DNA of 64,000 bases from Spirochaetota bacterium (GCA_050298055.1 JBNKTL010000013.1:30447-94446); one strand, 5' to 3'; shown: positions 12,337-63,752, numbered from the stretch's first letter. Notes: generated from the sequence alone by a model not told the origin. Numbers and translations are program-made.

Positions 12337-14079
12337 ATGATAACAAGAATTTATATAAAAAATTTCAAAAGGTTTGATGAAGCCAGCATTGATATCGGAA
12401 AATCTGTTGTATTAATTGGACCCAACAACTCGGGGAAAACAACTGCATTACAAGCTTTAGCACTTTGGGAAATTGGATTACGACGTTGGATTGAAAAGCG
12501 TCAAGGTAAATCAATAAAAACCCAAAGACAAGGTGTGGTTATTAACAGACGAGATCTTTCATCTTTACCTGTACCTGTAGCAAACCTGCTTTGGCGTGAT
12601 TTACATGTCAGAAATGTAGAACGTGACGAAGGAAAACAAAAAACACAAAATATTCGAATAGATATTCTTGTAGAAGGCATTACCAACGATAAAACTTGGT
12701 CATGTGGTTTAGAGTTTGATTATGCCAATGAAGAATCTTTTTATTGCAGACCTCTTAGATTAAATGATAATGATCCAATAGAGAGAATGCCAATAGCTGA
12801 GTCTGCTTTAGAGGTCGAAGTTGCTTTTTTACCACCCATGTCTGGATTAGCAGACCGAGAATTTATCAAACAATCAGGAGAAATCAGTGTATTAGTTGGA
12901 CAAGGACAAACTGCACAAGTTTTACGAAATTTATGTTATAGTGTTTGTTACCCAGGAGAATTAATATCACCATCTTCTGAATGGGATGAATTAACACAAC
13001 ATATAATACGCTTATTTGGAATTAAACTTCTTCCACCAACATTGATACAGGAAAGAAGTGAAATTACAATGCATTATATTGAAGAATCAGGTAAAGGAGT
13101 GAAACTTGATCTTTCATCGGCCGGGAGAGGTCTACAGCAAACTTTATTAATACTTGCTTACTTGTACGCCAACCCAAAAACAGTCTTATTATTGGATGAA
13201 CCCGATGCTCACCTTGAAGTTTTACGTCAACGTCAAATTTATCAATTGATAAATGATATTGCTAAAAATAATGGTTCACAAGTAATTGCCGCCAGCCATT
13301 CAGAGATAATTTTTAATGAAGCTGCAAATCAAGGACTCGTTATTGCTTTTGTCGGAAAACCTCATATAATAAATGATCGAGGTTCTCAAGTAATGAAAGC
13401 TCTCACCGATTTAGGTTGGGAACAATATTATCAAGCCGAACAAACTGGTTGGGTACTCTATTTAGAGGGATCGACAGATTTAGCAATTATAAAAACATTT
13501 GCTCGAAAATTACAACACCCTGTAGAACAATTCTTAGATATGGCTTTTGTTCATTATGTTTCTACAAATTTACCACAAAAAGCACGCGATCACTTCTTTG
13601 GTCTTTGCGAAGCAAAATCTGATTTAATTGGCATAGCTTTGTTTGATAGACTCGATAAAGAATTGAAATCAACTGATCGTTTGATAGAAATTATGTGGGA
13701 AAAAAATGAGATTGAAAATTATATTTGCACTAAAGATATTCTACTCGAATGGGCTGTTCATAATATACCAGATGATTTATTTGGACAAGCGGAGATTCGA
13801 CATAGGCGAGAAGTGATGCAAAAAGCCATAGAAGATGTAACTCATTTACTAGAAATTGATGAGAAATCCCCATGGTCAAATGAAGTAAAAGCAACAGATG
13901 AAGTTTTAGATCGCATATTCCGTATTTTCTTTAAAGAGTTAAATTTACCTTTAACATTTCGAAAAGTTGATTATTACAAACTTACAGATTTTATTGGAAA
14001 AAATAATATCGATAAAGAAGTTATTGAAAAACTCGATTTAATATATTCTGTAGCAAACAAAGCTGTTTCAAAATTTTGA
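12337..14079 (+). CDS. ABC-type ATPase with C-terminal TOPRIM-like domain (OLD-family-like ATP-dependent nuclease)
   Basis: IKNFKRF, GPNNSGKT (Walker A), SAGRG, LLLDEPDAHL (Walker B), ASHS; TOPRIM-like YLEGSTD, DRLD, EIENY. Confidence 0.8.
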   Translation: MITRIYIKNFKRFDEASIDIGKSVVLIGPNNSGKTTALQALALWEIGLRRWIEKRQGKSIKTQRQGVVINRRDLSSLPVPVANLLWRDLHVRNVERDEGKQKTQNIRIDILVEGITNDKTWSCGLEFDYANEESFYCRPLRLNDNDPIERMPIAESALEVEVAFLPPMSGLADREFIKQSGEISVLVGQGQTAQVLRNLCYSVCYPGELISPSSEWDELTQHIIRLFGIKLLPPTLIQERSEITMHYIEESGKGVKLDLSSAGRGLQQTLLILAYLYANPKTVLLLDEPDAHLEVLRQRQIYQLINDIAKNNGSQVIAASHSEIIFNEAANQGLVIAFVGKPHIINDRGSQVMKALTDLGWEQYYQAEQTGWVLYLEGSTDLAIIKTFARKLQHPVEQFLDMAFVHYVSTNLPQKARDHFFGLCEAKSDLIGIALFDRLDKELKSTDRLIEIMWEKNEIENYICTKDILLEWAVHNIPDDLFGQAEIRHRREVMQKAIEDVTHLLEIDEKSPWSNEVKATDEVLDRIFRIFFKELNLPLTFRKVDYYKLTDFIGKNNIDKEVIEKLDLIYSVANKAVSKF

Positions 14080-14090
14080 AATATCCTCCA

Positions 14091-14501
14091 TCAGCCCAGG
14101 TTGTCGCCCTTTGAACTCATGCTGAGGCTGGAATTCTTCACGCCCCGAAGGACCTTGAGTTTCTGGGAGAGCTCCTGAACCCGGGTGGAGGTCCCTTTGA
14201 CGATGATCACTTCCAGGCAGTTGTCATGGTCAACATGGATATGGGTGGAGGAAACAATAAATGAATGGTAGTCGTGCTGGAGTTCGGTTATCTTCTCCTG
14301 GATGTTATGGAGATGGTGGTCGAAAACCAGTGTAATGACACCGAAAACCTCCCTGTCCTCAGTCCACTCATCCAGAACAAGGGCGTCACGGATCAGGTCC
14401 CTGATGGCCTCGGAGCGGTTCATGTAGCTCTTCTTTCCGATATAGCTGTCAAACTTATCCAGCAGACTCTCTTCAAGTGATATGGAAAAACGCTTTAACA
14501 T
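14091..14501 (-). CDS. nikR: Nickel-responsive transcriptional regulator NikR
   Basis: RHH start RFSISLEESLL...NRSEAIRDLIR; QHDYH, THIHVDHDNCLEV. Confidence 0.95.
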   Translation of the reverse strand: MLKRFSISLEESLLDKFDSYIGKKSYMNRSEAIRDLIRDALVLDEWTEDREVFGVITLVFDHHLHNIQEKITELQHDYHSFIVSSTHIHVDHDNCLEVIIVKGTSTRVQELSQKLKVLRGVKNSSLSMSSKGDNLG

Positions 14502-14570
14502 TTGGTTACCACAAATCGTAATTTTGTATTTCTCTCATCCATTCCCTCTTTTTGTCAACGACAAATATAT

Positions 14571-15338
14571 TTAACTCTGTGAAAAGATCATGGCCGCGCC
14601 GTAGGCCACGGTAAATTGAGGGGACGGCAACACATGAACATGTGTAAGCAGTTCATTTTCAATGCACCGGACCAGTCCCGGGTTCATGGCAGGCCCCCCG
14701 TCAATATAGATATTTTCACCAAGGTCCATATTCCCGATCATGTTCACAACCCGTTTTGCCACGGATTCATGGAGCCCTTTGATGATTTTCTCTTTACCCG
14801 TTCCCTCCGCCAGAAGCGACACGATTTCACTTTCCGCGAAAACCACGCAGGTACTGTTTATTGAAACAGATGAACCGGGATTCAGGCTTAAATCCCCGAA
14901 CCGGGAAAGGGGTGTATCGATAATTCTGGCCGCTATTTCAAAAAACCTGCCGGTCCCGGCGGCACATTTATCGTTCATTTTAAAGTCCGCCACCTTCCCC
15001 CCGGGAGAGATCCTGATGACTTTGACGTCCTGGCCGCCGATATTAATGATCGTGTGGGCCTTTTGACCGCTCAGGAGATATGCCCCGCAGGCGTTGGCGG
15101 ATATTTCATCCACAACATTGTCCGTGCCGGCGATGAGCTTTCTCCCGTAACCGGTGGCAAAAATATTTTCCACGCATGACCTCTCCCGGGAAAGTTCCCG
15201 GAGCCCTTCGGATATCATTTTTTCAACAAGCTCCCCCTGGCCGGGAATTGTGGGAGAGACCTCTTCCCTGAGGATCTCACCATCCCGGATAAACACCATC
15301 TTTACGGCAGTGCTTCCAATATCAACACCTATCTTCAA
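14571..15338 (-). CDS. ASKHA-family ATP-dependent activase (2-hydroxyacyl-CoA dehydratase activator / DCCP-R-like)
   Basis: GVDIGSTAVK, TGYGR, IGGQDVK, MNDKCAAGTGRF, CVVFAESEIVSL. Confidence 0.93.
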   Translation of the reverse strand: MKIGVDIGSTAVKMVFIRDGEILREEVSPTIPGQGELVEKMISEGLRELSRERSCVENIFATGYGRKLIAGTDNVVDEISANACGAYLLSGQKAHTIINIGGQDVKVIRISPGGKVADFKMNDKCAAGTGRFFEIAARIIDTPLSRFGDLSLNPGSSVSINSTCVVFAESEIVSLLAEGTGKEKIIKGLHESVAKRVVNMIGNMDLGENIYIDGGPAMNPGLVRCIENELLTHVHVLPSPQFTVAYGAAMIFSQS

Positions 15339-15356
15339 ACTGTCTTTCCTCCTTCT

Positions 15357-16583
15357 TTACAGGGTATTTTTAAATGCTTCAAGACGCGTCAGGAGACCCT
15401 GACTGTCTTCCTCCACGTAATCGGTTTCAATCTTTATAAACTTGTACCCGCGCTCTTTCAGTTCTTTTTCAAGAGAGTAACTTTCAATATCATAGGGATG
15501 GCATCCTTTCAGCACATGGTAGATAACACCGTTGATGTCATGATTTTGCAGGGTATTTAAAATTCCTTTGAGCCGGTGGTCGTTGTCCGCGTAGGTGGGA
15601 CAGATACACGCTTTATGGTACCTGTGAGCAAGGGCTTTCATGAGGCCCTGTTCCGATGTATCATCGTAACATGCCCCCCCGGGGAATATCCGCTCCGAGG
15701 AACAGAGATCGTCCGCGGCAACAGACATACCCGCTTTTTCAACGAGAGAAAGAAGTTTCAGGTTCGGGAAAACAACCGGCGCCCCCGTAAGAAAGACCCC
15801 GGGGGTGTCCGGTTGACTTTTTTCAGTTTTTAACCGTTCAATCACGGGCCTGCAATTTCCCGTCCAGGTTTCGATATTTTCAAAGGGGAAGACGTTGGCA
15901 ATTATTGTAAAGAGCAAAGCGGAGATCTTTTTCTCTCTTCTCAGTTCAATGAGTTCATTAAAGTCCTTCCATGCGGCAAGGTACCTGTTGAGCGAATGCA
16001 GCATTTCTCTGCGCCTGACTCTTTTACCCGTTATTCTTTCAAAGAGTTTTTTTAATTCAAAAAGTTCCTGCAGCCAGCGGGACTCCCCTTTCTCACTCTG
16101 TTTCATATGGGGGAGCTCAAGGAAATGAATTTTTTCCCTGTCACAGTCCGCAAGCTCCGGGAATTTCACCACCCAGTCGCATGTTGTGGGGAGTATGATT
16201 CTTTCAAAAAGATTTTTATACGAATCATGACTCTTTAATATTCCCATTGTGGATTTAATCACCGGGCATGTGAGCGCGGGCAATGTTGAAGCGGAGAGGA
16301 GCTGGGCGGCATGAGAACCGCCGCATAATTTGAAAGGCTGAAGATCAAACATATGAAAAAGTTCATGAGGTGACTGAATGCAGAAAAAACCCACAAAGGG
16401 CCGCCCGGTCCTCTCCCTGATCTTTTCGGGAAAGAGGGAATCCGCAACCGTATCAAGGAAGGGGTCCAGTTCATGGATATAGTCAGGCCTGGATTTCAAA
16501 GAATCAATCCGGGAATCACACTCCCTTTTCATCAGTTCATTGGCATTCTCCAGCAGTCTGGAATGTCTTTTATTTTTTCCCAT
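15357..16583 (-). CDS. 2-hydroxyacyl-CoA dehydratase-family Fe-S protein (double-cubane reductase-like)
   Basis: Cys motifs FCIQSPHE, LCGG, CPVIKS, TTCD, DDLCS, CICPT, GCHPYDIE; C-terminal IETDY...TRLEAF; start taken at ATG 16583. Confidence 0.88.
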   Translation of the reverse strand: MGKNKRHSRLLENANELMKRECDSRIDSLKSRPDYIHELDPFLDTVADSLFPEKIRERTGRPFVGFFCIQSPHELFHMFDLQPFKLCGGSHAAQLLSASTLPALTCPVIKSTMGILKSHDSYKNLFERIILPTTCDWVVKFPELADCDREKIHFLELPHMKQSEKGESRWLQELFELKKLFERITGKRVRRREMLHSLNRYLAAWKDFNELIELRREKKISALLFTIIANVFPFENIETWTGNCRPVIERLKTEKSQPDTPGVFLTGAPVVFPNLKLLSLVEKAGMSVAADDLCSSERIFPGGACYDDTSEQGLMKALAHRYHKACICPTYADNDHRLKGILNTLQNHDINGVIYHVLKGCHPYDIESYSLEKELKERGYKFIKIETDYVEEDSQGLLTRLEAFKNTL

Positions 16584-17514
16584 GCAGCCTTCCCCACTTT
16601 TGAGCAACGTATTTTTTTGAAGAACTGAATATCCTGAAGTTCAAAAACTTTATCTGCAGAACATTGTCCCCTGGACATGATTCGGCGCACTTCATGCAGA
16701 GCATGCAGTCGTCTTTCATGACGTCCTTTCTCTTTTTTTCAAGATAGACCTCTTTGATGTCAACGGGACACATCCGCTGGCAGTTTCCGCAGCCGAGACA
16801 GGTCCCTATGGATTTTTCAAAACGCACAAACCCGATCTTTTTGAAGATATGCATCAGGGCCAGCAGGGGACAGAACATGCAGAAAAACCTGTCTTTAAAA
16901 AAGATCCCGATGACCATGCTGCCGGTAATGACCAGGGAAAGGACCGTAAAGGAGAGGGTAATTGAATTTGTAAAATCCAGTGAAAGATATTTTGTTTCTC
17001 CCGCAAAGAGGGGCAGGAGGGGCTTTGCCGGGCAGATCTGGCAGAAGGGGAGAGCAAAATCAGTGTGGAGCCCGAAATTCGCGATAAAAACAGGGATGAG
17101 AATCAGGACTGCCAGTAAAATGTACTTGATAATCTTCAACCTCTCCCGTGTTGCCCGGGAAAATCCCGACTCCCTTATCCCCAGCTTCCTTCTCAAAGCC
17201 GTGAACCAGTCCTGCAGTGTGCCAAAGGGACAGACCCAGCCGCACCAGGTTTTAGAGAAGGGGACAAAGAGCAGAATAAAAAACAGAAATACCAGCAGGG
17301 CATTGAGTCCCCATTGCGTAAAGAAATCGGGAAACGCCAGCCCAAACCCCATACGGTTCTGCAGTGCCATAAGATAGCAGTGCCCCGCGCACCCGCCCAC
17401 ATAGGGACAGGCGAAACAGGGCAGCGAATGACCCAGGCGTATCCCCAGCCGTCCCCCGTACATGAGAATGATGAAGAAAAAATTCTGTATATAAAACCGT
17501 AATTTTCCGACCAT
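16570..17514 (-). CDS. Membrane-bound 4Fe-4S protein (NapH/MauN/YccM-like)
   Basis: WCGWVCPFG, FCQICP, FCMFCP plus two CxxCxxCxxxCP ferredoxin motifs; several TM segments. Confidence 0.9.
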   Translation of the reverse strand: MVGKLRFYIQNFFFIILMYGGRLGIRLGHSLPCFACPYVGGCAGHCYLMALQNRMGFGLAFPDFFTQWGLNALLVFLFFILLFVPFSKTWCGWVCPFGTLQDWFTALRRKLGIRESGFSRATRERLKIIKYILLAVLILIPVFIANFGLHTDFALPFCQICPAKPLLPLFAGETKYLSLDFTNSITLSFTVLSLVITGSMVIGIFFKDRFFCMFCPLLALMHIFKKIGFVRFEKSIGTCLGCGNCQRMCPVDIKEVYLEKKRKDVMKDDCMLCMKCAESCPGDNVLQIKFLNFRIFSSSKKYVAQKWGRLHGKK

Positions 17515-18368
17515 CAGACTCTCTGCCGGTTTTTTTTCCCTCTGGCCCGTATGACCAGGAAGAGGAAAAAAGCCATACTCCCCGAAACAAGGAACAAACC
17601 TGATTTAAGATCATGATACGCGTCCCGTGAGCGGTGCAGCAGGAGTGTATAGGTTCTCCTGAAGATTCTGCCGCCCCTCTTTTCTTTTATCTGAATGAAA
17701 CTGTTCTTATACGCCGCTGCCCCCCGCGTATCCAGGTCCCTGTCATGGGGAGGAATACAGGTAAATTCCCCATTACTGTCTGGTTCCAGGGATAAGACAA
17801 TTCCCTTATCAACGGCCTTTATCTCCGGATAATTTCCGGTGTCCCTCCCGGAATTGAGTTTAAACCGGTACACCCGGCCTGTCTGTGGCCAGTAGTTATT
17901 CAGAGGGGAGAGAATGCTGACTGCCGGGAAATCTTCCGGTTGGTCCGTAAGACCCTCCCTTTCCGGAGGTTTATTCGATTGTCCAAAGAGAGAAAATGAA
18001 GTCTCCGCAGTATATACGGCATTTTTCATAACTGTAAAAATCCGGACCTCAAAGAAAGATGCCTTCCCGGCTTTGATCTTTATGAGCGCCCTGTTGTCGT
18101 GAGAGAGGACTGGAAGCGAATAACAGTTTTTTTTGTCCACCCTGCAGATTGCCTTAAATTCACTGTGTCTGAAAAGGGAATAGAAGTGTTTTGAACTGCC
18201 ATTTATCCATAAGACCTGGACAACCGAACCATCCTTGTTTTTCAACTGTTTTCCGTACTCTAACCGGATATATCTCTCTTCCGGTACCTGAAAAAGTTCT
18301 GCTGAATCTGACGGATATTCAAAGAAAAGACATTGAGATATGACTATGAGTGTAAATAACTTATTCAC
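17514..18368 (-). CDS. Hypothetical exported protein with C-terminal membrane anchor
   Basis: Long ORF within the operon; N-terminal hydrophobic stretch and C-terminal TM followed by basic tail; start uncertain (GTG 18368 avoids overlap, track gives 18467). Confidence 0.65.
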   Translation of the reverse strand: MNKLFTLIVISQCLFFEYPSDSAELFQVPEERYIRLEYGKQLKNKDGSVVQVLWINGSSKHFYSLFRHSEFKAICRVDKKNCYSLPVLSHDNRALIKIKAGKASFFEVRIFTVMKNAVYTAETSFSLFGQSNKPPEREGLTDQPEDFPAVSILSPLNNYWPQTGRVYRFKLNSGRDTGNYPEIKAVDKGIVLSLEPDSNGEFTCIPPHDRDLDTRGAAAYKNSFIQIKEKRGGRIFRRTYTLLLHRSRDAYHDLKSGLFLVSGSMAFFLFLVIRARGKKNRQRV

Positions 18369-18400
18369 TGTATTCTCATTACAATGGGGACTGCTTTTTT

Positions 18401-19183
18401 TTACAGGTACTCCGGGATGGGATAAATATACGGATTCCCCGTAACCGGGTTCTTCTTCATTGAACACTCCCTGTCGAAAAGTGAACTTACCAGCTCCCCG
18501 GTCAGGCAGTCCGCCGTTTTCCCGTGGCAGAATATCCCGCCCCCCTTGAGACCCATTATGCTGCTGCAGTAATCGGAGGCCATGTTTATGTCGTGCAGGA
18601 CCGTAATAATCGTGGAGCCCTCCCGGTTCAGCCTGTGCAGCAGGTCCATGATCCGGATAGAGTGTTTAATGTCCAGGCTTGAGACCGGTTCGTCACAGAT
18701 GATGACGTCCTTGTTCTGCGCTAATGCCCGTGCCAGGCAGACCAGCTGAAGCTCACCCCCTGACAAACGGGAGAGAAGGCGGTCCTTTAAGTGGACCGTT
18801 CCGGTTATCTTCATTGAATCATTTATTATTTCCCGGTCTTCCCGGGAATTTTTTTCCCAGAAATTCAGGAAAGGGAACCTTCCCATACCGATGAAATTTT
18901 CAACCCTGAAAGGATTGATGTTCGCGAGGAACTGCGGTAAAAATGCCATTCGCCGGGCTATTTCCATCGGCTCGTATGATGAAAGTTTTTGACCGTAAAA
19001 ATCTACAGAACCCTGCAACGGCTCAAGGAGACCGGAGAGTGTCTTGAGGAATGTGCTTTTCCCCGCGCCGTTGGGGCCGATAATTCCCAGAAAATCCTTT
19101 GGGGCAACGGAAACATTTATGTTCCTCAGTACCCGGATCGTGCCGTAACCCGAGTCAAGGGAGTCAACGTCAAATATGTTCAT
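18401..19183 (-). CDS. ABC transporter ATP-binding subunit (BtuD/FhuC-like)
   Basis: GPNGAGKS, LSGGELQ, CDEPVSSLD, LHDIN. Confidence 0.93.
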   Translation of the reverse strand: MNIFDVDSLDSGYGTIRVLRNINVSVAPKDFLGIIGPNGAGKSTFLKTLSGLLEPLQGSVDFYGQKLSSYEPMEIARRMAFLPQFLANINPFRVENFIGMGRFPFLNFWEKNSREDREIINDSMKITGTVHLKDRLLSRLSGGELQLVCLARALAQNKDVIICDEPVSSLDIKHSIRIMDLLHRLNREGSTIITVLHDINMASDYCSSIMGLKGGGIFCHGKTADCLTGELVSSLFDRECSMKKNPVTGNPYIYPIPEYL

Positions 19184-20154
19184 TACGCCACCCCCCTTCT
19201 CATCATGAGGACAAGGAAAAATATCCCCCCGAAAAAACCCGTGATGACACCGATGGGTATTTCGTAGGGAGGGGCAATACTCCTGCCCAGCATATCACAG
19301 AGAGCGAGAAAGACGGCCCCGGTTACCGCCGAGAAAAGGAGAAGCCTGCCGTGATCGGGACCGAAAATATTCCTGGTTATGTGCGGTATGATAAGCCCCA
19401 CAAAACCGATGACTCCCGCAAGGGACACGGAGAGGGCGGCCAGGAGTGAAGCGATCCAGAAAAGACTTTTAACGTCCTTCTGTGACACCCCCATGGACTG
19501 CGCCAGTTCGTCCCCGAAAGCTATGATATTCAGGTGCCGGTGATATGTAAAGGCAAAGACGATAATAACGAGGGACAATAATGCCGCCCTTCCCATCATT
19601 TCATACCGGGCTATGGAGAGGTCCCCCATGAGCCACATGAGCGCTTTATGGACCTGCTGGGAGGGCGAAAGGGCAAAGATCAGAAGCACCGTTGCCCAGA
19701 GGATAAAGCTGAGGGAAATTCCCGCAAGGATCAGCGTTGAGGAACCGAACCGTCTCCGCCTGGACACCATGTAGATAAATGATGCCGCCCCGAGACTTCC
19801 CATGAGGGCGCCGGATAAAATAAAAAGACTGCTTTTTGAAAAAATAATACCGAAACACGCCCCCAGGGAAGCGCCGCTGGAAACGCCGATCATATAGGGG
19901 TCCGCGAGGGGGTTCTTCAGAATAGACTGAAAGATAACGCCGCTCACCGCCAGGGAGGAACCGATAAGAAGGGCCATCCCCAGGCGGGGGACCCTGAGAC
20001 TGAGGAGCACCCTCATTTCATTTGTTTCCGGCCTTCCCTGCAGGGTCTTGATAATATTCGCCGGGGATATAAAGGAGGACCCCAGGGAGAGTGACAGCAG
20101 AATGATCACACCCCCAGCAAGCAGCAGGAGAATATACCTGGATTTATTGCTCAT
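19183..20154 (-). CDS. FecCD/BtuC-family ABC permease
   Basis: LRVPR, NPLADP..IGVSSGA, GVIGFVGLIIPH, EIPIGVIT. Confidence 0.94.
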   Translation of the reverse strand: MSNKSRYILLLLAGGVIILLSLSLGSSFISPANIIKTLQGRPETNEMRVLLSLRVPRLGMALLIGSSLAVSGVIFQSILKNPLADPYMIGVSSGASLGACFGIIFSKSSLFILSGALMGSLGAASFIYMVSRRRRFGSSTLILAGISLSFILWATVLLIFALSPSQQVHKALMWLMGDLSIARYEMMGRAALLSLVIIVFAFTYHRHLNIIAFGDELAQSMGVSQKDVKSLFWIASLLAALSVSLAGVIGFVGLIIPHITRNIFGPDHGRLLLFSAVTGAVFLALCDMLGRSIAPPYEIPIGVITGFFGGIFFLVLMMRRGVA

Positions 20155-21052
20155 TAAGTTTTTCCTTCTCTCTTTTAATGATCCCCGTTACCTGTTCAAC
20201 GGATTTCACATAATCTCCCGGTGTATAGAGGCAGATGTTTTCAGATTTCAAGGGATAGATACTTTTGTTTTTCATGACTTTTAAGTCCGGGAAGTCTTTC
20301 AACGATCTTACCAGGGACCTGTTGTTTGTTCCCGTATGGTACAAAATTGAGACGATAATATCGGGATCAAGTTTTACCAGGTGCTCCAGGGAGAGTTTCG
20401 GATAGGGACGGCCCAGAAGCCTCATACTGTTTATCCCCCCCGCGTCATTGATGACCTTCCCGATATAGGTAACGTTGCTCACTCCCACAATGGGTGTGTT
20501 TGACACAAGGAGCGCGATGGACGGTTTACTGCCGACTGAAATTATTGAGTCCAGCTTCTTCCTGTATTCTTTGAGTTTTTTCTCTGCCAGTTTTCTCTTC
20601 CGGATAATTGTTGCAAGTTCAAGATAATTCTCACAGATTGAATCAAAACTGCGGTTTCTTCCAAATTTATGGACCGCAATCTTCGTGGCCTTCAACATGT
20701 CAACAAACTGGACCACGTTGTCCTCTTCGGACATAAAGACAATATCCGGTTTTAATTTTACGATCTCTTCGATATTCGGCCGCACCAGTGTTCCCACTAT
20801 TTTGATCTTCCGCGTCAGGGGAGGATGATAGGATGTGACCCCCACAAGAAGGTGTTCCGATTCAAGATCAATGACCTGGCGTGTTATCGCGGGCGAAAGG
20901 GCGATGATCCTATTGACATTGCCGGCTGTTTTTGAAACTGCCGGTTTCTCATCCGGGGGGAAGAGAAAAACAGAGAAAGAGACCAGGAGGAGTAAAGGAA
21001 TTTGATATAACCGGATCTTCTTCAGGTGTATTAATAATATACTCAGTTTCAT
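20144..21052 (-). CDS. Helical-backbone periplasmic binding protein (BtuF-like)
   Basis: RIIALSPAIT, LVGVTSY, PNIEEIVKLKPD, LSLEHLVKLDPDII. Confidence 0.9.
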   Translation of the reverse strand: MKLSILLIHLKKIRLYQIPLLLLVSFSVFLFPPDEKPAVSKTAGNVNRIIALSPAITRQVIDLESEHLLVGVTSYHPPLTRKIKIVGTLVRPNIEEIVKLKPDIVFMSEEDNVVQFVDMLKATKIAVHKFGRNRSFDSICENYLELATIIRKRKLAEKKLKEYRKKLDSIISVGSKPSIALLVSNTPIVGVSNVTYIGKVINDAGGINSMRLLGRPYPKLSLEHLVKLDPDIIVSILYHTGTNNRSLVRSLKDFPDLKVMKNKSIYPLKSENICLYTPGDYVKSVEQVTGIIKREKEKLNEQ

Positions 21053-21064
21053 AGTGGATGCCGT

Positions 21065-21703
21065 TTAATATATTAAATTCAGGTTGTATACAAGCTGGAC
21101 ATTAAATTCCATGTTCTCATCCAGATAGACATCGGGAAAGGAGGGAAAAGGAAGCGATTTGTATATTGTCTTTACCCCCGCCCTGTTCAGCATTTCATGT
21201 TCACAGCCCTTTACAAGCTTTACGGAACCTGCCAGTGTTCCGTCCTTCCTCAGAATAAATCTCAATACAACAACTCCCTCCTGGTTCATGCGCCGGGCAG
21301 TAAGAGGATAGTATTTCATCCTCTGGATTCTCGAGAGGACCCTGCTTTTATATGTCTTCATGATCTTTTCCACGGGATTTTTTGAGAGGGAGGCGGGCGC
21401 CGGGGAGTTTCTGTTCTTTTCCGCCCCGGTTTTTCCCGCAGGCAGATCTCCCGGTTTTTTAAAAGCACTTTTTTCCCGGTCATCATTCTTGTTATCTTTC
21501 AAGTGACGAAATTCATGATGCCGCCCGTTATCATTAATGCTGAAGTTAATGAAAGTGAAACCGGCTTTTTTTGAAGGGAGCTCAATCTCCTTATCTGTCC
21601 GCCCGGACCGGGGATAGATGATTACAAGGTGTAATACCATTGATGCTATTAACGCGTAAAGGAATACCCTGTCCCGGCTTTTATTATTTGCCATTACTTT
21701 CAT
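21065..21703 (-). CDS. tonB: TonB-family energy transducer
   Basis: N-terminal TM with S..LH; C-terminal YPLTARRMNQEGVVVLRFIL..DG. Confidence 0.88.
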   Translation of the reverse strand: MKVMANNKSRDRVFLYALIASMVLHLVIIYPRSGRTDKEIELPSKKAGFTFINFSINDNGRHHEFRHLKDNKNDDREKSAFKKPGDLPAGKTGAEKNRNSPAPASLSKNPVEKIMKTYKSRVLSRIQRMKYYPLTARRMNQEGVVVLRFILRKDGTLAGSVKLVKGCEHEMLNRAGVKTIYKSLPFPSFPDVYLDENMEFNVQLVYNLNLIY

Positions 21704-22088
21704 GCGCGAGGCTGATCTCCTTTGCTCCGGAACTTTTTATTATTCCCATAATATTAATAAATTTTTTATAGAGTATATTTTCATCACCCTGGAAGATTAT
21801 TTTCTTCTTCTGCGTTTTTTCCAGCTTCTGTTTTAAGAGTGACGGGAACAGTTCAGCCTCCACTTCATTTCTGTTGAGAAAGATCTTTCCCTCTTTGTCA
21901 ACGGAAACGATAATCTCCCGGTTTTTTGCTTTTTCCCTGCTTCCGGCCACGGGAAGTTTCAGGGATATTGCGGGCCGGAGAAAAGACGATGTGAGTAAAA
22001 AGAAGAGAAGAAGCATGAACATAACATCCAGCAGCGGTGCAACGTCCGGTTTAATTGATGATTTTTTGGCCCTCCTGAAACTTTTCAC
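21684..22088 (-). CDS. exbD: Biopolymer transport protein ExbD
   Basis: APLLDVMFMLLLFFL TM motif; I.LP; GDENI.Y. Confidence 0.92.
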   Translation of the reverse strand: MKSFRRAKKSSIKPDVAPLLDVMFMLLLFFLLTSSFLRPAISLKLPVAGSREKAKNREIIVSVDKEGKIFLNRNEVEAELFPSLLKQKLEKTQKKKIIFQGDENILYKKFINIMGIIKSSGAKEISLAHESNGK

Positions 22089-22705
22089 CCCTGGCTTCTC
22101 TCCTTATCGTCAAAAAATATATTCAGTTCTGAAATCAGGTGCTGCATTTCATCGGACCTCTTGTTCACAAGAGTGTCAAAATAATGATGAAGCGCCGTTA
22201 CGGGAATTGCCACAATCAGCCCGAAGGCAGTTGTCAAAAGGGCCTCCCAGATTCCGCCTGCAAGCTGAGTCACATCCGCCTGCCCTCCTATTGAGTAAAT
22301 CTCCTGGAAACATTTAATCATGCCGATCACCGTACCCAGCAGACCCATGAGAGGTGTCAGGTGCGCTATTGCCGATAAAGACGGAAGCCTTGTTTCAAGT
22401 TTTTTTAACTCTTCGCTGCCGCGCTGGTAGAGTATTTCTTCCAGCTTTTTTTTCCTTGTTTTATAATTTGTGAGATAAGCCCCGGTTATTTCTCCGAAGA
22501 CAGTCCCGCTGTTTATTGCAAATCCAATAGCGCCCTGTATGTCATCAGCCCCCAGGAACGACTTTAAATCGTTAAGGAATTTACTATAAGAATTCCCTGT
22601 CCGTAAATAATAGAGTGATCTCTCAATTGCCACGGCTACGGCAACAACCGAACAGACCAGGATGGCATACATGACCCATCCGCCCCTGTTTAACATATCA
22701 AGCAT
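22085..22705 (-). CDS. exbB: MotA/TolQ/ExbB proton channel protein
   Basis: PLMGLLGTVIGMI, LAGGIWEALLTTAFGLIVAIP. Confidence 0.93.
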   Translation of the reverse strand: MLDMLNRGGWVMYAILVCSVVAVAVAIERSLYYLRTGNSYSKFLNDLKSFLGADDIQGAIGFAINSGTVFGEITGAYLTNYKTRKKKLEEILYQRGSEELKKLETRLPSLSAIAHLTPLMGLLGTVIGMIKCFQEIYSIGGQADVTQLAGGIWEALLTTAFGLIVAIPVTALHHYFDTLVNKRSDEMQHLISELNIFFDDKERSQG

Positions 22706-22780
22706 TAAAAAACCTCAAAAGTTAATAATTTTTACAACCACTCAACTATACAGAGCCGGGTAGTTTCTCCTCATATTAAT

Positions 22781-22811
22781 AAAAAAACCCGGACCAGTAA
22801 CGCGGCCCGGG
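22781..22811 (-). terminator. Intrinsic terminator in the riboswitch leader (candidate expression platform)
   Basis: Minus strand CCCGGGCC-gcgttact-GGTCCGGG followed by a T7 run, between the aptamer and exbB. Confidence 0.75.
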
Positions 22812-22876
22812 GATTCCCTTTTCTCTCCTCAAGTCAAGTGAACACGCTTTCTTCCCTCGAAAATCCGGTGTTCATC

Positions 22877-23056
22877 TATACAGGCAGGTCTTCTGGTTTC
22901 CGGATCATCCTACTGACCGCGCCTTCCCGTAAGCCTTGCCCGGTTAAAGGTCTGCTTACAGTGGCTTCCCTGCGGTTTTCGTCCCCGGCTACAGCGGCGG
23001 GTCCACACCCGATTTTGACGGGTTTCCCTCTTAGCTCACTGATGAGAACCTGTATA
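22877..23056 (-). promoter_or_regulatory. Cobalamin (B12) riboswitch
   Basis: Minus strand TATACAGGTT...AAGAGGGAAACCCGT...CCCGCCGCTGT...GCCACTG...GGGAAGG...CCAGAAGACCTGCCTGTATA; P1 ends TATACAGG/CCTGTATA pair; lies upstream of TonB/Btu-like genes. Confidence 0.93.
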
Positions 23057-23198
23057 TCATTAAATAAATATTATTTTAAAGATCAATAAAAACAACCTGC
23101 AACAAGCAAAAACCGCAGGGTAAATTTTGTCAATTTTATTCAGGCTTTATTCTAAAAAATTACTCATCTGCCATAAAGGCTTATTAACTTCCAGGTTG

Positions 23199-42186: not shown

Positions 42187-42535
42187 GGGGACGATTTTGG
42201 TTTCGACTGCATTTTCGGAACTGTAGCTGCATGCCGATTGCGCTGTCATATCGTAAAAATGGCAGAACTAAATTAAACGCAAACGATAACTTTGCTCTAG
42301 CAGCTTAAGCTGCTGGCGTGCTTTGGGAATCTGCTCCTCTGGGAACTCAAAGGGCGTAAAATACAGGGGATATTCTTTGCTTTTCTTTCGCAGTAAAGGA
42401 GAAACTTAAGAAAGTACGGCTTTAAGGAATGGTTCCTGTTCCCGGTCTTTTTAGCCAAAATTAAAAGAACAGGATAAGCATGTAGACGCTGCCGGGCTGG
42501 CTTGCAGGACGCGGGTTCGACCCCCGCCGTCTCCA
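42187..42535 (+). ncRNA. ssrA: tmRNA; tag peptide (A)ANDNFALAA
   Basis: 5' GGGGACG...GGTTTCGAC; tag frame GCA AAC GAT AAC TTT GCT CTA GCA GCT TAA at 42279-42308; 3' GCGGGTTCGACCCCCGCCGTCTCCA T-arm and acceptor. Confidence 0.96.
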
Positions 42536-42539
42536 GATA

Positions 42540-63634: not shown

Positions 63635-63752
<118 letters not shown>

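Follow-up and report, generated by a model that had tools for sequence, protein, structure and literature searches.

An operon on the minus strand of a 64,000-nucleotide stretch from the genome of a Spirochaetota bacterium (GCA_050298055.1, JBNKTL010000013.1:30447-94446; hereafter the window) joins genes for a BtuFCD-like importer to a redox cassette of four genes, all of them downstream of a cobalamin riboswitch. The cassette encodes an exported protein with a predicted DUF4198 fold, a NapH-like membrane polyferredoxin, a divergent relative of the double-cubane cluster protein (DCCP) and an ATP-dependent activase of the DCCP-R type. The four genes recur as a unit in other genomes, and their link to corrinoid uptake, suggested in a preliminary description made from the window's sequence, is found again at many of these loci. 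We propose, with middling confidence, that the cassette is an ATP-driven, very-low-potential reductase that would pass electrons through the membrane to a periplasmic site acting on imported corrinoid. No published description of the cassette or of its B12 link was found in the literature, a search whose scope stopped short of the supplements of the flavinylation and SAO preprints, which may list clusters of this kind; the B12 section of PMC545781 does not mention the cassette genes. The component families are already known, and what is new is their combination, its regulation and its implied role.

Conservation of the cassette and its link to B12

A word-indexed search returned 418 relatives of the DCCP-like protein, and the 120 of these that were listed (38-99% identical, mostly 44-54%) come from Sporomusa, Desulfobacterales, Spirochaetes, Omnitrophota and other groups. 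Gene neighbourhoods were compared at 80 loci around such homologues. By phmmer, the NapH-like protein is present at 75 loci, the activase at 74 and the exported protein at 41; the counts for btuD-like, exbB, btuC and btuF genes are 20, 18, 9 and 6, and nikR, which follows the cassette in the window, stands beside it at none of these other loci. Clustering of called genes gave DCCP 74, activase 64, NapH-like 61, exported protein 47 and TonB-dependent receptor 42. Most often the receptor gene comes first, followed by those for the exported protein, NapH-like protein, DCCP and activase, and the last four genes are one conserved cassette. It is an accessory, patchily distributed element, and a close homologue of the DCCP-like gene occurs in one of 30 related genomes searched.

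Twenty of the 28 loci that were analysed with Rfam have a cobalamin-class riboswitch upstream of the cassette on the same strand, directly before the exported-protein gene in Sporomusa and, at most other loci, before the receptor gene that heads the operon. The remaining eight comprise four at which the contig breaks off a short way upstream; one (L029) where the riboswitch lies immediately past the cassette, before the receptor; one (L018) with two short upstream nhmmer matches that Rfam did not confirm; one (L039) with a receptor at the edge of the fetched stretch; and one (L062) with a different context, namely a B12-binding radical SAM protein, a U32 peptidase and DUF2079. All 80 loci were then scanned with an nhmmer profile made from 19 aptamers that Rfam had confirmed, and the matches were combined with the gene maps. 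This placed an upstream same-strand riboswitch at 28 loci, which is 28 of the 54 with a visible upstream boundary (after Rfam, L018 was taken out of the count and L068 added; a match before a receptor at L052 was left uncounted because a long opposite-strand open reading frame (ORF) separates it from the cassette). Among the closest homologues with a visible upstream boundary the figure is 16 of 22. Since the whole host genome has three cobalamin-class riboswitches in 4.7 Mb, the enrichment at cassette loci is far beyond chance. The riboswitch-bearing loci span at least six phyla and often include a BtuB-like receptor and corrinoid-salvage genes. In a maximum-likelihood tree of 62 proteins (a quick search with SH-aLRT support only, 22 of the 80 loci being left out because their DCCP ORF, fused or truncated, falls outside 380-470 amino acids), all 25 riboswitch-labelled rows lie within one 54-row clade (SH-aLRT 99); outside it stand the canonical DCCP, a host paralogue on contig C49 and five Hyphomicrobiales/Desulfovibrionales rows.

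B12 salvage or transport genes occur at 29 of the 80 loci, and together with the receptors and riboswitches they clearly contradict the refuting condition set in the preliminary description, that homologues of the redox genes would never co-occur with corrinoid or metal uptake genes. By Pfam, the neighbours include BtuF-CbiZ fusions, CobN-like proteins (about 1300 amino acids), CbiK, CobD, CobQ, BtuR and CobT; of the 80 loci, DUF2162 is encoded at 14, DUF2149 at 11, CbiK and CobD at 5 each, and BtuR and CobQ at 4 each. CobN-like ORFs lie beside the cassette at 14 loci, two of them confirmed by Pfam, and at three of four such loci that were checked the protein is anchored at its N and C termini, like HmuS. 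BtuF-CbiZ fusions with N-terminal signal or anchor segments are encoded at L063:8459-10396, L060:6577-8592 and L045:2096-4201 (domain pair Pfam-confirmed for L063 only), which suggests that cobinamide amidohydrolase acts in the periplasm of these organisms. Such signal-peptide BtuF-CbiZ proteins and the anchored CobN-like proteins make periplasmic processing of an imported macrocycle plausible.

The combination of a TonB-dependent receptor with a CobN-like protein, DUF2162 and DUF2149 at cassette loci resembles the hmu operon of Bacteroidota, where DUF2162 and DUF2149 presumably correspond to Hmu proteins. The activity of HmuS depends on the membrane fraction and a reductant (PMC12583661). HmuS, however, acts on haem and uses NADH-linked membranes, with no need for ATP, and the window operon has no CobN-like gene; unlike membrane-anchored HmuS, the product of the only such gene in the host (contig C66) is of cytoplasmic type, with ChlI/ChlD-like genes nearby.

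In Sporomusa sp. KB1 (L020, 2781-19360), six cobalamin riboswitches are packed into 21 kb of one strand. In turn they stand ahead of genes for a RACo-like activator and CbiK, of the cassette itself, and of a TonB-dependent receptor gene grouped with an RND/HlyD efflux-type set, besides other genes; the RACo gene is probably unrelated. Metagenome-assembled genomes of Hyphomicrobiales and Desulfovibrionales (L082-L092) carry distant cassettes, 31-34% identical and without a riboswitch, in the order DUF2946, receptor, DUF4198-like protein (about 400 amino acids), NapH-like protein, DCCP, activase, DsbD-family protein, exbBD, tonB, a context of apparent metal type, possibly copper or nickel.

Organization of the operon

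Both the riboswitch and the terminator of the preliminary description were recovered (Table 1), the aptamer starting 12 nt beyond the end of the region as then delimited. The terminator hairpin, with 9 pairs (7 GC), a loop of 6 and then a T7 run, TTTTTTTATT, lies 55 nt past the aptamer and 83 nt ahead of the exbB start, where an expression platform would be placed. Eleven genes follow on the same strand, from exbB through nikR, in exactly the order described earlier. Their close spacing, previously put at about 30 bp or less, holds for the junctions between operon genes, which are overlaps or gaps of at most 32 nt, but not for activase-nikR (69 nt) or for aptamer-exbB (160 nt, with the terminator inside). 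An internal promoter or terminator had been named as something that could separate the redox genes from the transporter. Within the operon region, promoter-like matches stay at the level of shuffled sequence (10 versus 12.2 +/- 3.9), whereas terminator-like matches exceed it (25 versus 12.7 +/- 4.6); the only strong ones are the hairpin that goes with the riboswitch and a second that precedes it, and the scan revealed no internal site of a quality near that of the riboswitch terminator.

Table 1. Features of the riboswitch-headed operon, in order of transcription
Feature	Position in window	Strand	Evidence
Cobalamin riboswitch aptamer	22866..23068	minus	Rfam RF00174, 100.4 bits (gathering score 31.5), full model 1-189
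Intrinsic-terminator-like hairpin and T-run (expression platform)	22778..22811 (hairpin 22811..22788)	minus	
ExbB/TolQ-family proton-channel protein	22085..22705	minus	PF01618, 102.9 bits
ExbD/TolR-family protein	21684..22088	minus	PF02472, 93.9 bits
TonB-family protein	21065..21703	minus	PF03544 TonB_C, 42.2 bits
BtuF-like periplasmic binding protein (Peripla_BP_2)	20144..21052	minus	PF01497, 60.5 bits
BtuC/FecCD-type ABC permease	19183..20154	minus	PF01032, 287 bits; best NCBIfam match BtuC
BtuD/FecE-type ABC ATPase	18401..19183	minus	PF00005, 99.6 bits
Exported protein with predicted DUF4198 fold, C-terminal membrane anchor (cassette gene 1)	17514..18368 (longest ORF to 18467)	minus	
NapH-like membrane polyferredoxin (cassette gene 2)	16570..17514	minus	PF12801 Fer4_5 and 2x[4Fe-4S] domain
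DCCP-like 7-Cys protein (cassette gene 3)	15357..16583 (longest ORF to 16607)	minus	PF06050, 220.9 bits
ATP-dependent activase / DCCP-R-type reductase (cassette gene 4)	14571..15338	minus	TIGR00241, 241 bits (cut-off 125.4); PF01869, 167.7 bits
NikR nickel-responsive repressor (last gene on strand)	14091..14501	minus	NF003381, 171.9 bits (cut-off 105)

The btuFCD-like products all belong to the Pfam families Peripla_BP_2, FecCD and ABC_tran, and their scores fall below the NCBIfam equivalog cut-offs (BtuF 53.4 versus 234, BtuC 209.5 versus 461, BtuD 115.3 versus 281). Because these scores are too low, the corrinoid specificity of the importer is assigned from the riboswitch context. We read the operon as a B12-repressed system for corrinoid import, in which ExbBD-TonB would energize a BtuB-like receptor encoded elsewhere and, together with BtuFCD, would be joined to the redox cassette.

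The DCCP-like protein and its activase

DCCP and DCCP-R (an archerase) constitute an ATP-dependent two-component reductase (PMC7317905), and the DCCP family is described as widespread, nitrogenase-like and ATP-driven, with a physiological substrate that is unknown (PMC7317905; PMC11971306). The window protein aligns with the solved DCCP of Carboxydothermus hydrogenoformans (6ENO; complexes 7YYL and others) over residues 66-413 (E 1.2e-40), and the seven cysteine motifs noted in the preliminary description are all present in the translation and match the motif cysteines of 6ENO (76, 95, 114, 143, 302, 334/336 and 369). Like its Carboxydothermus counterpart it has about 420 amino acids, an N-terminal extension and an adjoining activase-type ATPase gene, here 18 nt downstream. 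The published motif of DCCP (cluster IV of IPR010327) is CX19CX18-19CX29CX166-170CX32-34CX32C, with six ligand cysteines and one nearby cysteine (PMC7317905); the spacings in the window protein are 18, 18, 28, 158, 33 and 32, so that two gaps out of the six agree with the published ranges; of the other four, two miss by 1 residue, one by 1-2 and one by 8. In an alignment with 23 homologues (24 sequences in all), the six ligand cysteines are invariant and the seventh, non-ligand one is variable.

The earlier assignment to DCCP thus stands as regards the 7-Cys motif and the adjacent activase but not as regards the family profile, since the best NCBIfam match, double_cubane NF040772, scores 231.4 bits against a cut-off of 350. 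With the same model, a canonical DCCP of the host (contig C17) reaches 494.7, the paralogue on C49, which has a NikR box, 325.2 and the Sporomusa orthologue 246. Because its score lies below the cut-off, the window protein is best filed as a member of a divergent DCCP-like clade, not as an equivalog. Members of this clade differ from Carboxydothermus DCCP in having two constant companions, an exported protein and a NapH-like membrane protein that is in some cases fused to them, in the variability of the seventh cysteine and, in the window, in standing under a B12 riboswitch. Where the Haft preprint discusses NF040772 proteins, it connects them with the SAO locus and with SelD rather than with B12.

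A related fold is found in BzdN of class I benzoyl-CoA reductase (PDB 8S02; E 2.1e-13 to the DCCP-like protein). Below -600 mV, the [8Fe-9S] cluster of BzdNO is described as relaying and storing electrons that an ATP-dependent module supplies (PMC11971306), and this is the role that we propose for the DCCP-like protein. BzdN, however, pairs with the catalytic BzdO and works in the cytoplasm on a CoA ester, whereas the window protein has no second HGD-D subunit and its next electron carrier would be the membrane polyferredoxin.

The lone HGD-D gene also bears on a further option raised in the preliminary description, that the module is a dehydratase or reductase standing in for a B12-dependent reaction when B12 is scarce, in the manner of metE or nrdDG. 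Riboswitches are known to control B12-independent isozymes, one case being NrdDG in delta-proteobacteria (PMC545781), and the HGD-D family includes 2-hydroxyacyl-CoA dehydratases. The window, however, encodes a single 7-Cys subunit in place of the alpha/beta dehydratase heterodimer, in which each HGD-D subunit binds its cluster by a 3-Cys motif (HadC 96.5 bits, cut-off 700). At the cassette loci, moreover, the module's constant companions are a membrane Fe-S protein and an exported DUF4198-fold protein, as a rule with a TonB-dependent receptor close by, and it never stands with metabolic-pathway partners. We consider this option unsupported and very improbable.

The membrane polyferredoxin and its exported partner

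The product of cassette gene 2 matches Fer4_5 (47.1 bits, cut-off 22) and falls short of the NapH model NF007013 (63.9 bits, cut-off 234); judged by these profiles, it has the architecture of NapH but is not NapH itself. With NapH, NosR and PceC-type proteins it shares the Fer4_5 domain, several transmembrane helices and a C-terminal 2x[4Fe-4S] domain; a sequence search of the PDB matched the ferredoxin domain only. In contrast to NapH and NosR, it scores under every NCBIfam cut-off for these proteins and has no FMN-binding domain, and it differs from all three types in having extra invariant cysteines in predicted outer loops and, presumably, in being partnered by a DCCP-type ATP-driven reductase in place of the quinol pool. 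Sixteen cysteines are invariant among 34 sequences of the family. Hydropathy, with the ferredoxin domain taken as cytoplasmic, would put loops 29-67 and 148-184 outside, and with them the invariant Cys36, Cys46, Cys158 and Cys161; Cys91, Cys95, Cys212, Cys215 and the eight ferredoxin cysteines are predicted inside. Two fusions of about 725 amino acids occur among the 120 listed relatives of the DCCP-like protein, and in one of them (P0017) residues 2-315 are NapH-like and 323-724 DCCP-like, an order that puts the DCCP-like protein next to the ferredoxin end of the membrane protein, on the cytoplasmic side. For NapH-like proteins in general, electron passage across the membrane to extracytosolic partners has been proposed (10.1101/2021.01.07.425746).

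Such a partner may be the product of cassette gene 1, for which a start giving 284 amino acids was chosen after the homologue P0121. It matches no profile of Pfam (E 0.01) or NCBIfam, DUF4198 (PF10670) included. Its family, with 340 members at E <=0.001 in a profile search of 1.84 billion representatives, is characterized by a signal peptide, some 230 periplasmic residues and a C-terminal hydrophobic helix with a basic tail, by the motifs YWxQTG, PPHD and LHRSR, and by conserved His208 and His245. An AlphaFold2 model based on 41 sequences has a mean predicted local distance difference test score (pLDDT) of 90.3, and its top Foldseek match is Zcp of Neisseria gonorrhoeae (9mhl_B, E 8.1e-6). It superposes on Zcp 9mhi_A with Z 13.4 (root-mean-square deviation 3.1 A over 178 residues) and on a nickel-bound DUF4198 protein, 9gcb_C, with Z 11.8, the next match reaching only 5.4. 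In hhalign comparisons, the family is related to the exported proteins of the distant cassettes (99.2% probability) and weakly to six bona fide DUF4198 neighbours (28.6%); the exported protein of the host's paralogous cassette scores 30.3 bits with DUF4198 in Pfam (E 5.6e-7), under the cut-off of 34. As the alignment to bona fide DUF4198 is weak, the relation is founded on the fold and on the paralogue's family. Zcp and the Ideonella DUF4198 protein with nickel (9GCB) likewise have a two-sandwich fold, are exported and belong to TonB-dependent uptake contexts; the window protein differs from them in having no Pfam match, only 6-11% identity to the solved chains, a C-terminal anchor and motifs of its own. 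Zcp, a zinc-capture protein, has a metal site with three His.

A complex of the exported and NapH-like proteins was predicted with an interface score (ipSAE) of 0.75, the best of three controls giving 0.00; in calibration, 116 of 157 solved complexes attained this value, against 2 of 215 mismatched pairs. Three runs share at least 98% of contacts, with a partner pLDDT of at least 75. The anchor helix of the exported protein (254-276) packs on helix 186-206 of the NapH-like protein, and residues 43-47 (G47), 213-218 and 246-253, which are conserved and include HRS, approach loops 63-71 and 150-183. The exported protein is thus predicted to bind the outer face of the membrane protein.

The topology of the NapH-like protein is also compatible with a wholly cytoplasmic reaction, in which the DCCP-like protein and activase would reduce cob(II)alamin or cobinamide to the Co(I) form for adenosylation by BtuR/CobA, with the NapH-like protein feeding in quinol electrons or tethering the enzyme at the importer and the exported protein serving as a periplasmic partner in corrinoid hand-off or sensing. 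The fusion order makes the ferredoxin domain cytoplasmic, NapH is described as a putative quinol-binding subunit (10.1101/2021.01.07.425746), and BtuR, at four of the 80 loci, joins CobD and CobQ among the neighbours of the cassette. ATP-driven reduction of Co(II) to Co(I) is moreover an established need. It is served by RACE-type activators such as RACo (PMC7317905), which drive the corrinoid uphill and so solve the same chemical problem as the one proposed here; these belong, however, to an unrelated protein family and act on corrinoid bound to cytoplasmic proteins. A cytoplasmic reductase would leave unexplained the constant exported partner, its predicted contact with the outer loops and the NikR-box paralogue, and the cluster of the solved DCCP is reachable only through narrow channels (PMC7317905), which speaks against a corrinoid at the cluster. 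We regard this explanation as unlikely.

The host genome and a NikR-linked paralogue

The host genome (98.3% complete) has no match to CbiC or CbiD, and tblastn finds CobD, CobQ, BtuR and CobT; with CbiC and CbiD unmatched and salvage genes present, the host appears to live by corrinoid salvage and to depend on import of the ring, and free cobalt would have no evident place in ring synthesis there. A second cobalamin riboswitch (contig C13:6222-8469, locus L093; 115.9 bits) stands directly before a gene for a 637-residue TonB-dependent receptor. This BtuB-like receptor is encoded about 45 kb from the operon on the same contig, upstream of the window, and is likely the BtuB partner of the operon. 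Downstream of it lie genes for a CorA-type transporter and a subtilase. The third riboswitch (contig C62, L094:3830-6233, minus), of AdoCbl type RF01482 and just above threshold at 50.3 bits, precedes a HAD-family hydrolase and a MazG-like pyrophosphohydrolase, which are unusual targets for B12 control.

The nikR product has both NikR_C (PF08753) and RHH (PF01402) domains. On contig C49 (L098:2628-10700, minus) the host carries a paralogous cassette, with genes for a receptor, DUF4198-like, NapH-like and DCCP-like proteins and an activase followed by exbB, exbD and tonB; the NapH-like, DCCP-like and activase products are 42%, 30% and 46% identical to those of the window. The palindrome GTGTTAC-N13-GTAACAC, given as the NikR consensus of delta-proteobacteria (PMC545781, Nickel section, Table 4), lies about 70-95 nt before the C49 receptor gene, its only perfect match in the genome. 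A symmetric variant, GTATTAC-N13-GTAATAC, is found upstream of the CobN-like gene (1299 amino acids) on contig C66 (L099:3032-15730, minus), where the upstream region also contains a short stretch of N. Next come genes for a NikABCDE-like ABC transporter, for a Gate-domain membrane protein and for ChlI- and VWA(ChlD)-like products. A class I chelatase under nickel control is a possible reading of this locus. The window's contig has no NikR box at up to two mismatches, and the window nikR therefore appears to regulate the C49 and C66 loci.

The NikR box is among several observations that fit an alternative role in the acquisition of metal ions or metallophores. A receptor would import a chelate of cobalt (or nickel), the DUF4198-fold protein would capture the ion, and the reductase would destroy or reduce the chelator, or reduce the metal, for release, the B12 riboswitch acting as a signal of cobalt demand. 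CbiK and CobN-like chelatases lie near the cassette at several loci, and the outlying subgroup has DUF2946 and DsbD neighbours of metal type. Zcp of Neisseria binds Zn, Co, Ni and Cu in vitro and has been proposed to be a periplasmic metal buffer, and solved DUF4198 proteins bind ions of these four metals (PMC12663993). DUF4198 is often encoded in PepSY-like clusters, the one characterized PepSY-like homologue being VciB, a reported extracytosolic iron reductase (10.1101/2021.01.07.425746). In the host, however, with CbiC and CbiD unmatched, cobalt ions would serve no B12 synthesis; on our reading of the operon layout, the window cassette is co-transcribed with a BtuFCD-type importer; and other loci pair the cassette with the salvage genes for BtuF-CbiZ, CobD, CobQ and CobT. 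Simple Ni(II) and Co(II) ions, besides, require no low-potential reduction. As the role of the cassette, acquisition of metal ions or metallophores seems to us improbable.

Beyond nikR, the next gene of the window lies on the plus strand and converges on it (12337-14079); it encodes a 580-residue AAA_21/AAA_15 ATPase with an N-terminus resembling the MADS3 anti-phage ATPase (47.6 bits, far under the cut-off). Farther along the plus strand are a tmRNA gene (42187-42538, 170 bits) and a 5S rRNA gene (63636-63752, 102 bits).

Proposed mechanism

Under the proposal that the cassette exports electrons to a periplasmic corrinoid, the activase would use ATP to push single electrons into a double-cubane-type cluster of the DCCP-like protein, as its homologues do. 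The NapH-like protein, which in some bacteria is fused to the DCCP-like protein, would offer it a docking site in its cytoplasmic ferredoxin domain, and the electrons would travel by way of the cysteine and Fe-S sites of the NapH-like protein to the outer face of the membrane. There the anchored DUF4198-fold protein would hold freshly imported corrinoid, whose cobalt would be reduced towards Co(II) or Co(I) and its ligands stripped or loosened, after which the corrinoid would be handed on, imported or remodelled. Reduction would thus come before uptake by BtuF and BtuCD or before remodelling in the periplasm, and the C49 paralogue would act likewise on a nickel species under NikR. The path of electrons up to the outer face draws on homology, gene fusion and the predicted complex; the events beyond it, on regulation and gene neighbourhood.

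Several observations weigh against this proposal. No upstream riboswitch was found at 52 of the 80 loci (26 of them cut at a contig end), and a 12-row subclade and the outlying Hyphomicrobiales/Desulfovibrionales group sit in metal-type contexts. With a close homologue in only one of 30 relatives, the module is dispensable for B12 uptake generally. Characterized DUF4198 proteins, as described in PMC12663993, bind metal ions, not corrinoids. The cluster type and reactivity of the DCCP-like protein are assumed, its NF040772 score being below the cut-off, and given the narrow channels of the solved DCCP a corrinoid cannot be its direct substrate, so that a relay role, itself hypothetical, would be needed. 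The predicted outer cysteine loops of the NapH-like protein would in turn need a cofactor or dithiol chemistry. Electron flow could also run in reverse, with the NapH-like protein as donor to the activase.

A bolder generalization, which we advance as speculation and think doubtful, is that the cassette is an ATP-boosted exporter of electrons at less than about -500 mV to a periplasmic DUF4198-fold site, where corrinoid cobalt would be driven towards the +1 state; the NikR-controlled paralogue would target nickel in an imported nickel chelate or tetrapyrrole. If true, the two cassettes would exemplify a general step of "reductive unloading", in which axial or organometallic ligands are stripped and the macrocycle may be prepared for the periplasmic HmuS-type (de)chelatases and the BtuF-CbiZ fusions with signal peptides that are encoded next to the cassette at many loci.

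Implications

The cassette gives one clade of DCCP proteins a regulatory signal, in the form of a B12 riboswitch or, for the paralogue, a NikR box. It also gives that clade fixed partners and a process: a membrane polyferredoxin, a periplasmic protein with a metal-capture fold and TonB-dependent corrinoid uptake or salvage. The function of DCCP thereby becomes directly testable in culturable carriers of the cassette, such as Sporomusa (L020) and Desulfospira joergensenii DSM 10085 (L039). If electrons do exit the membrane at such potentials, this would be a new route by which anaerobes process scavenged B12 and nickel compounds, and it would bear on the sharing of cobamides in sediments, guts and anammox or dechlorinating communities.

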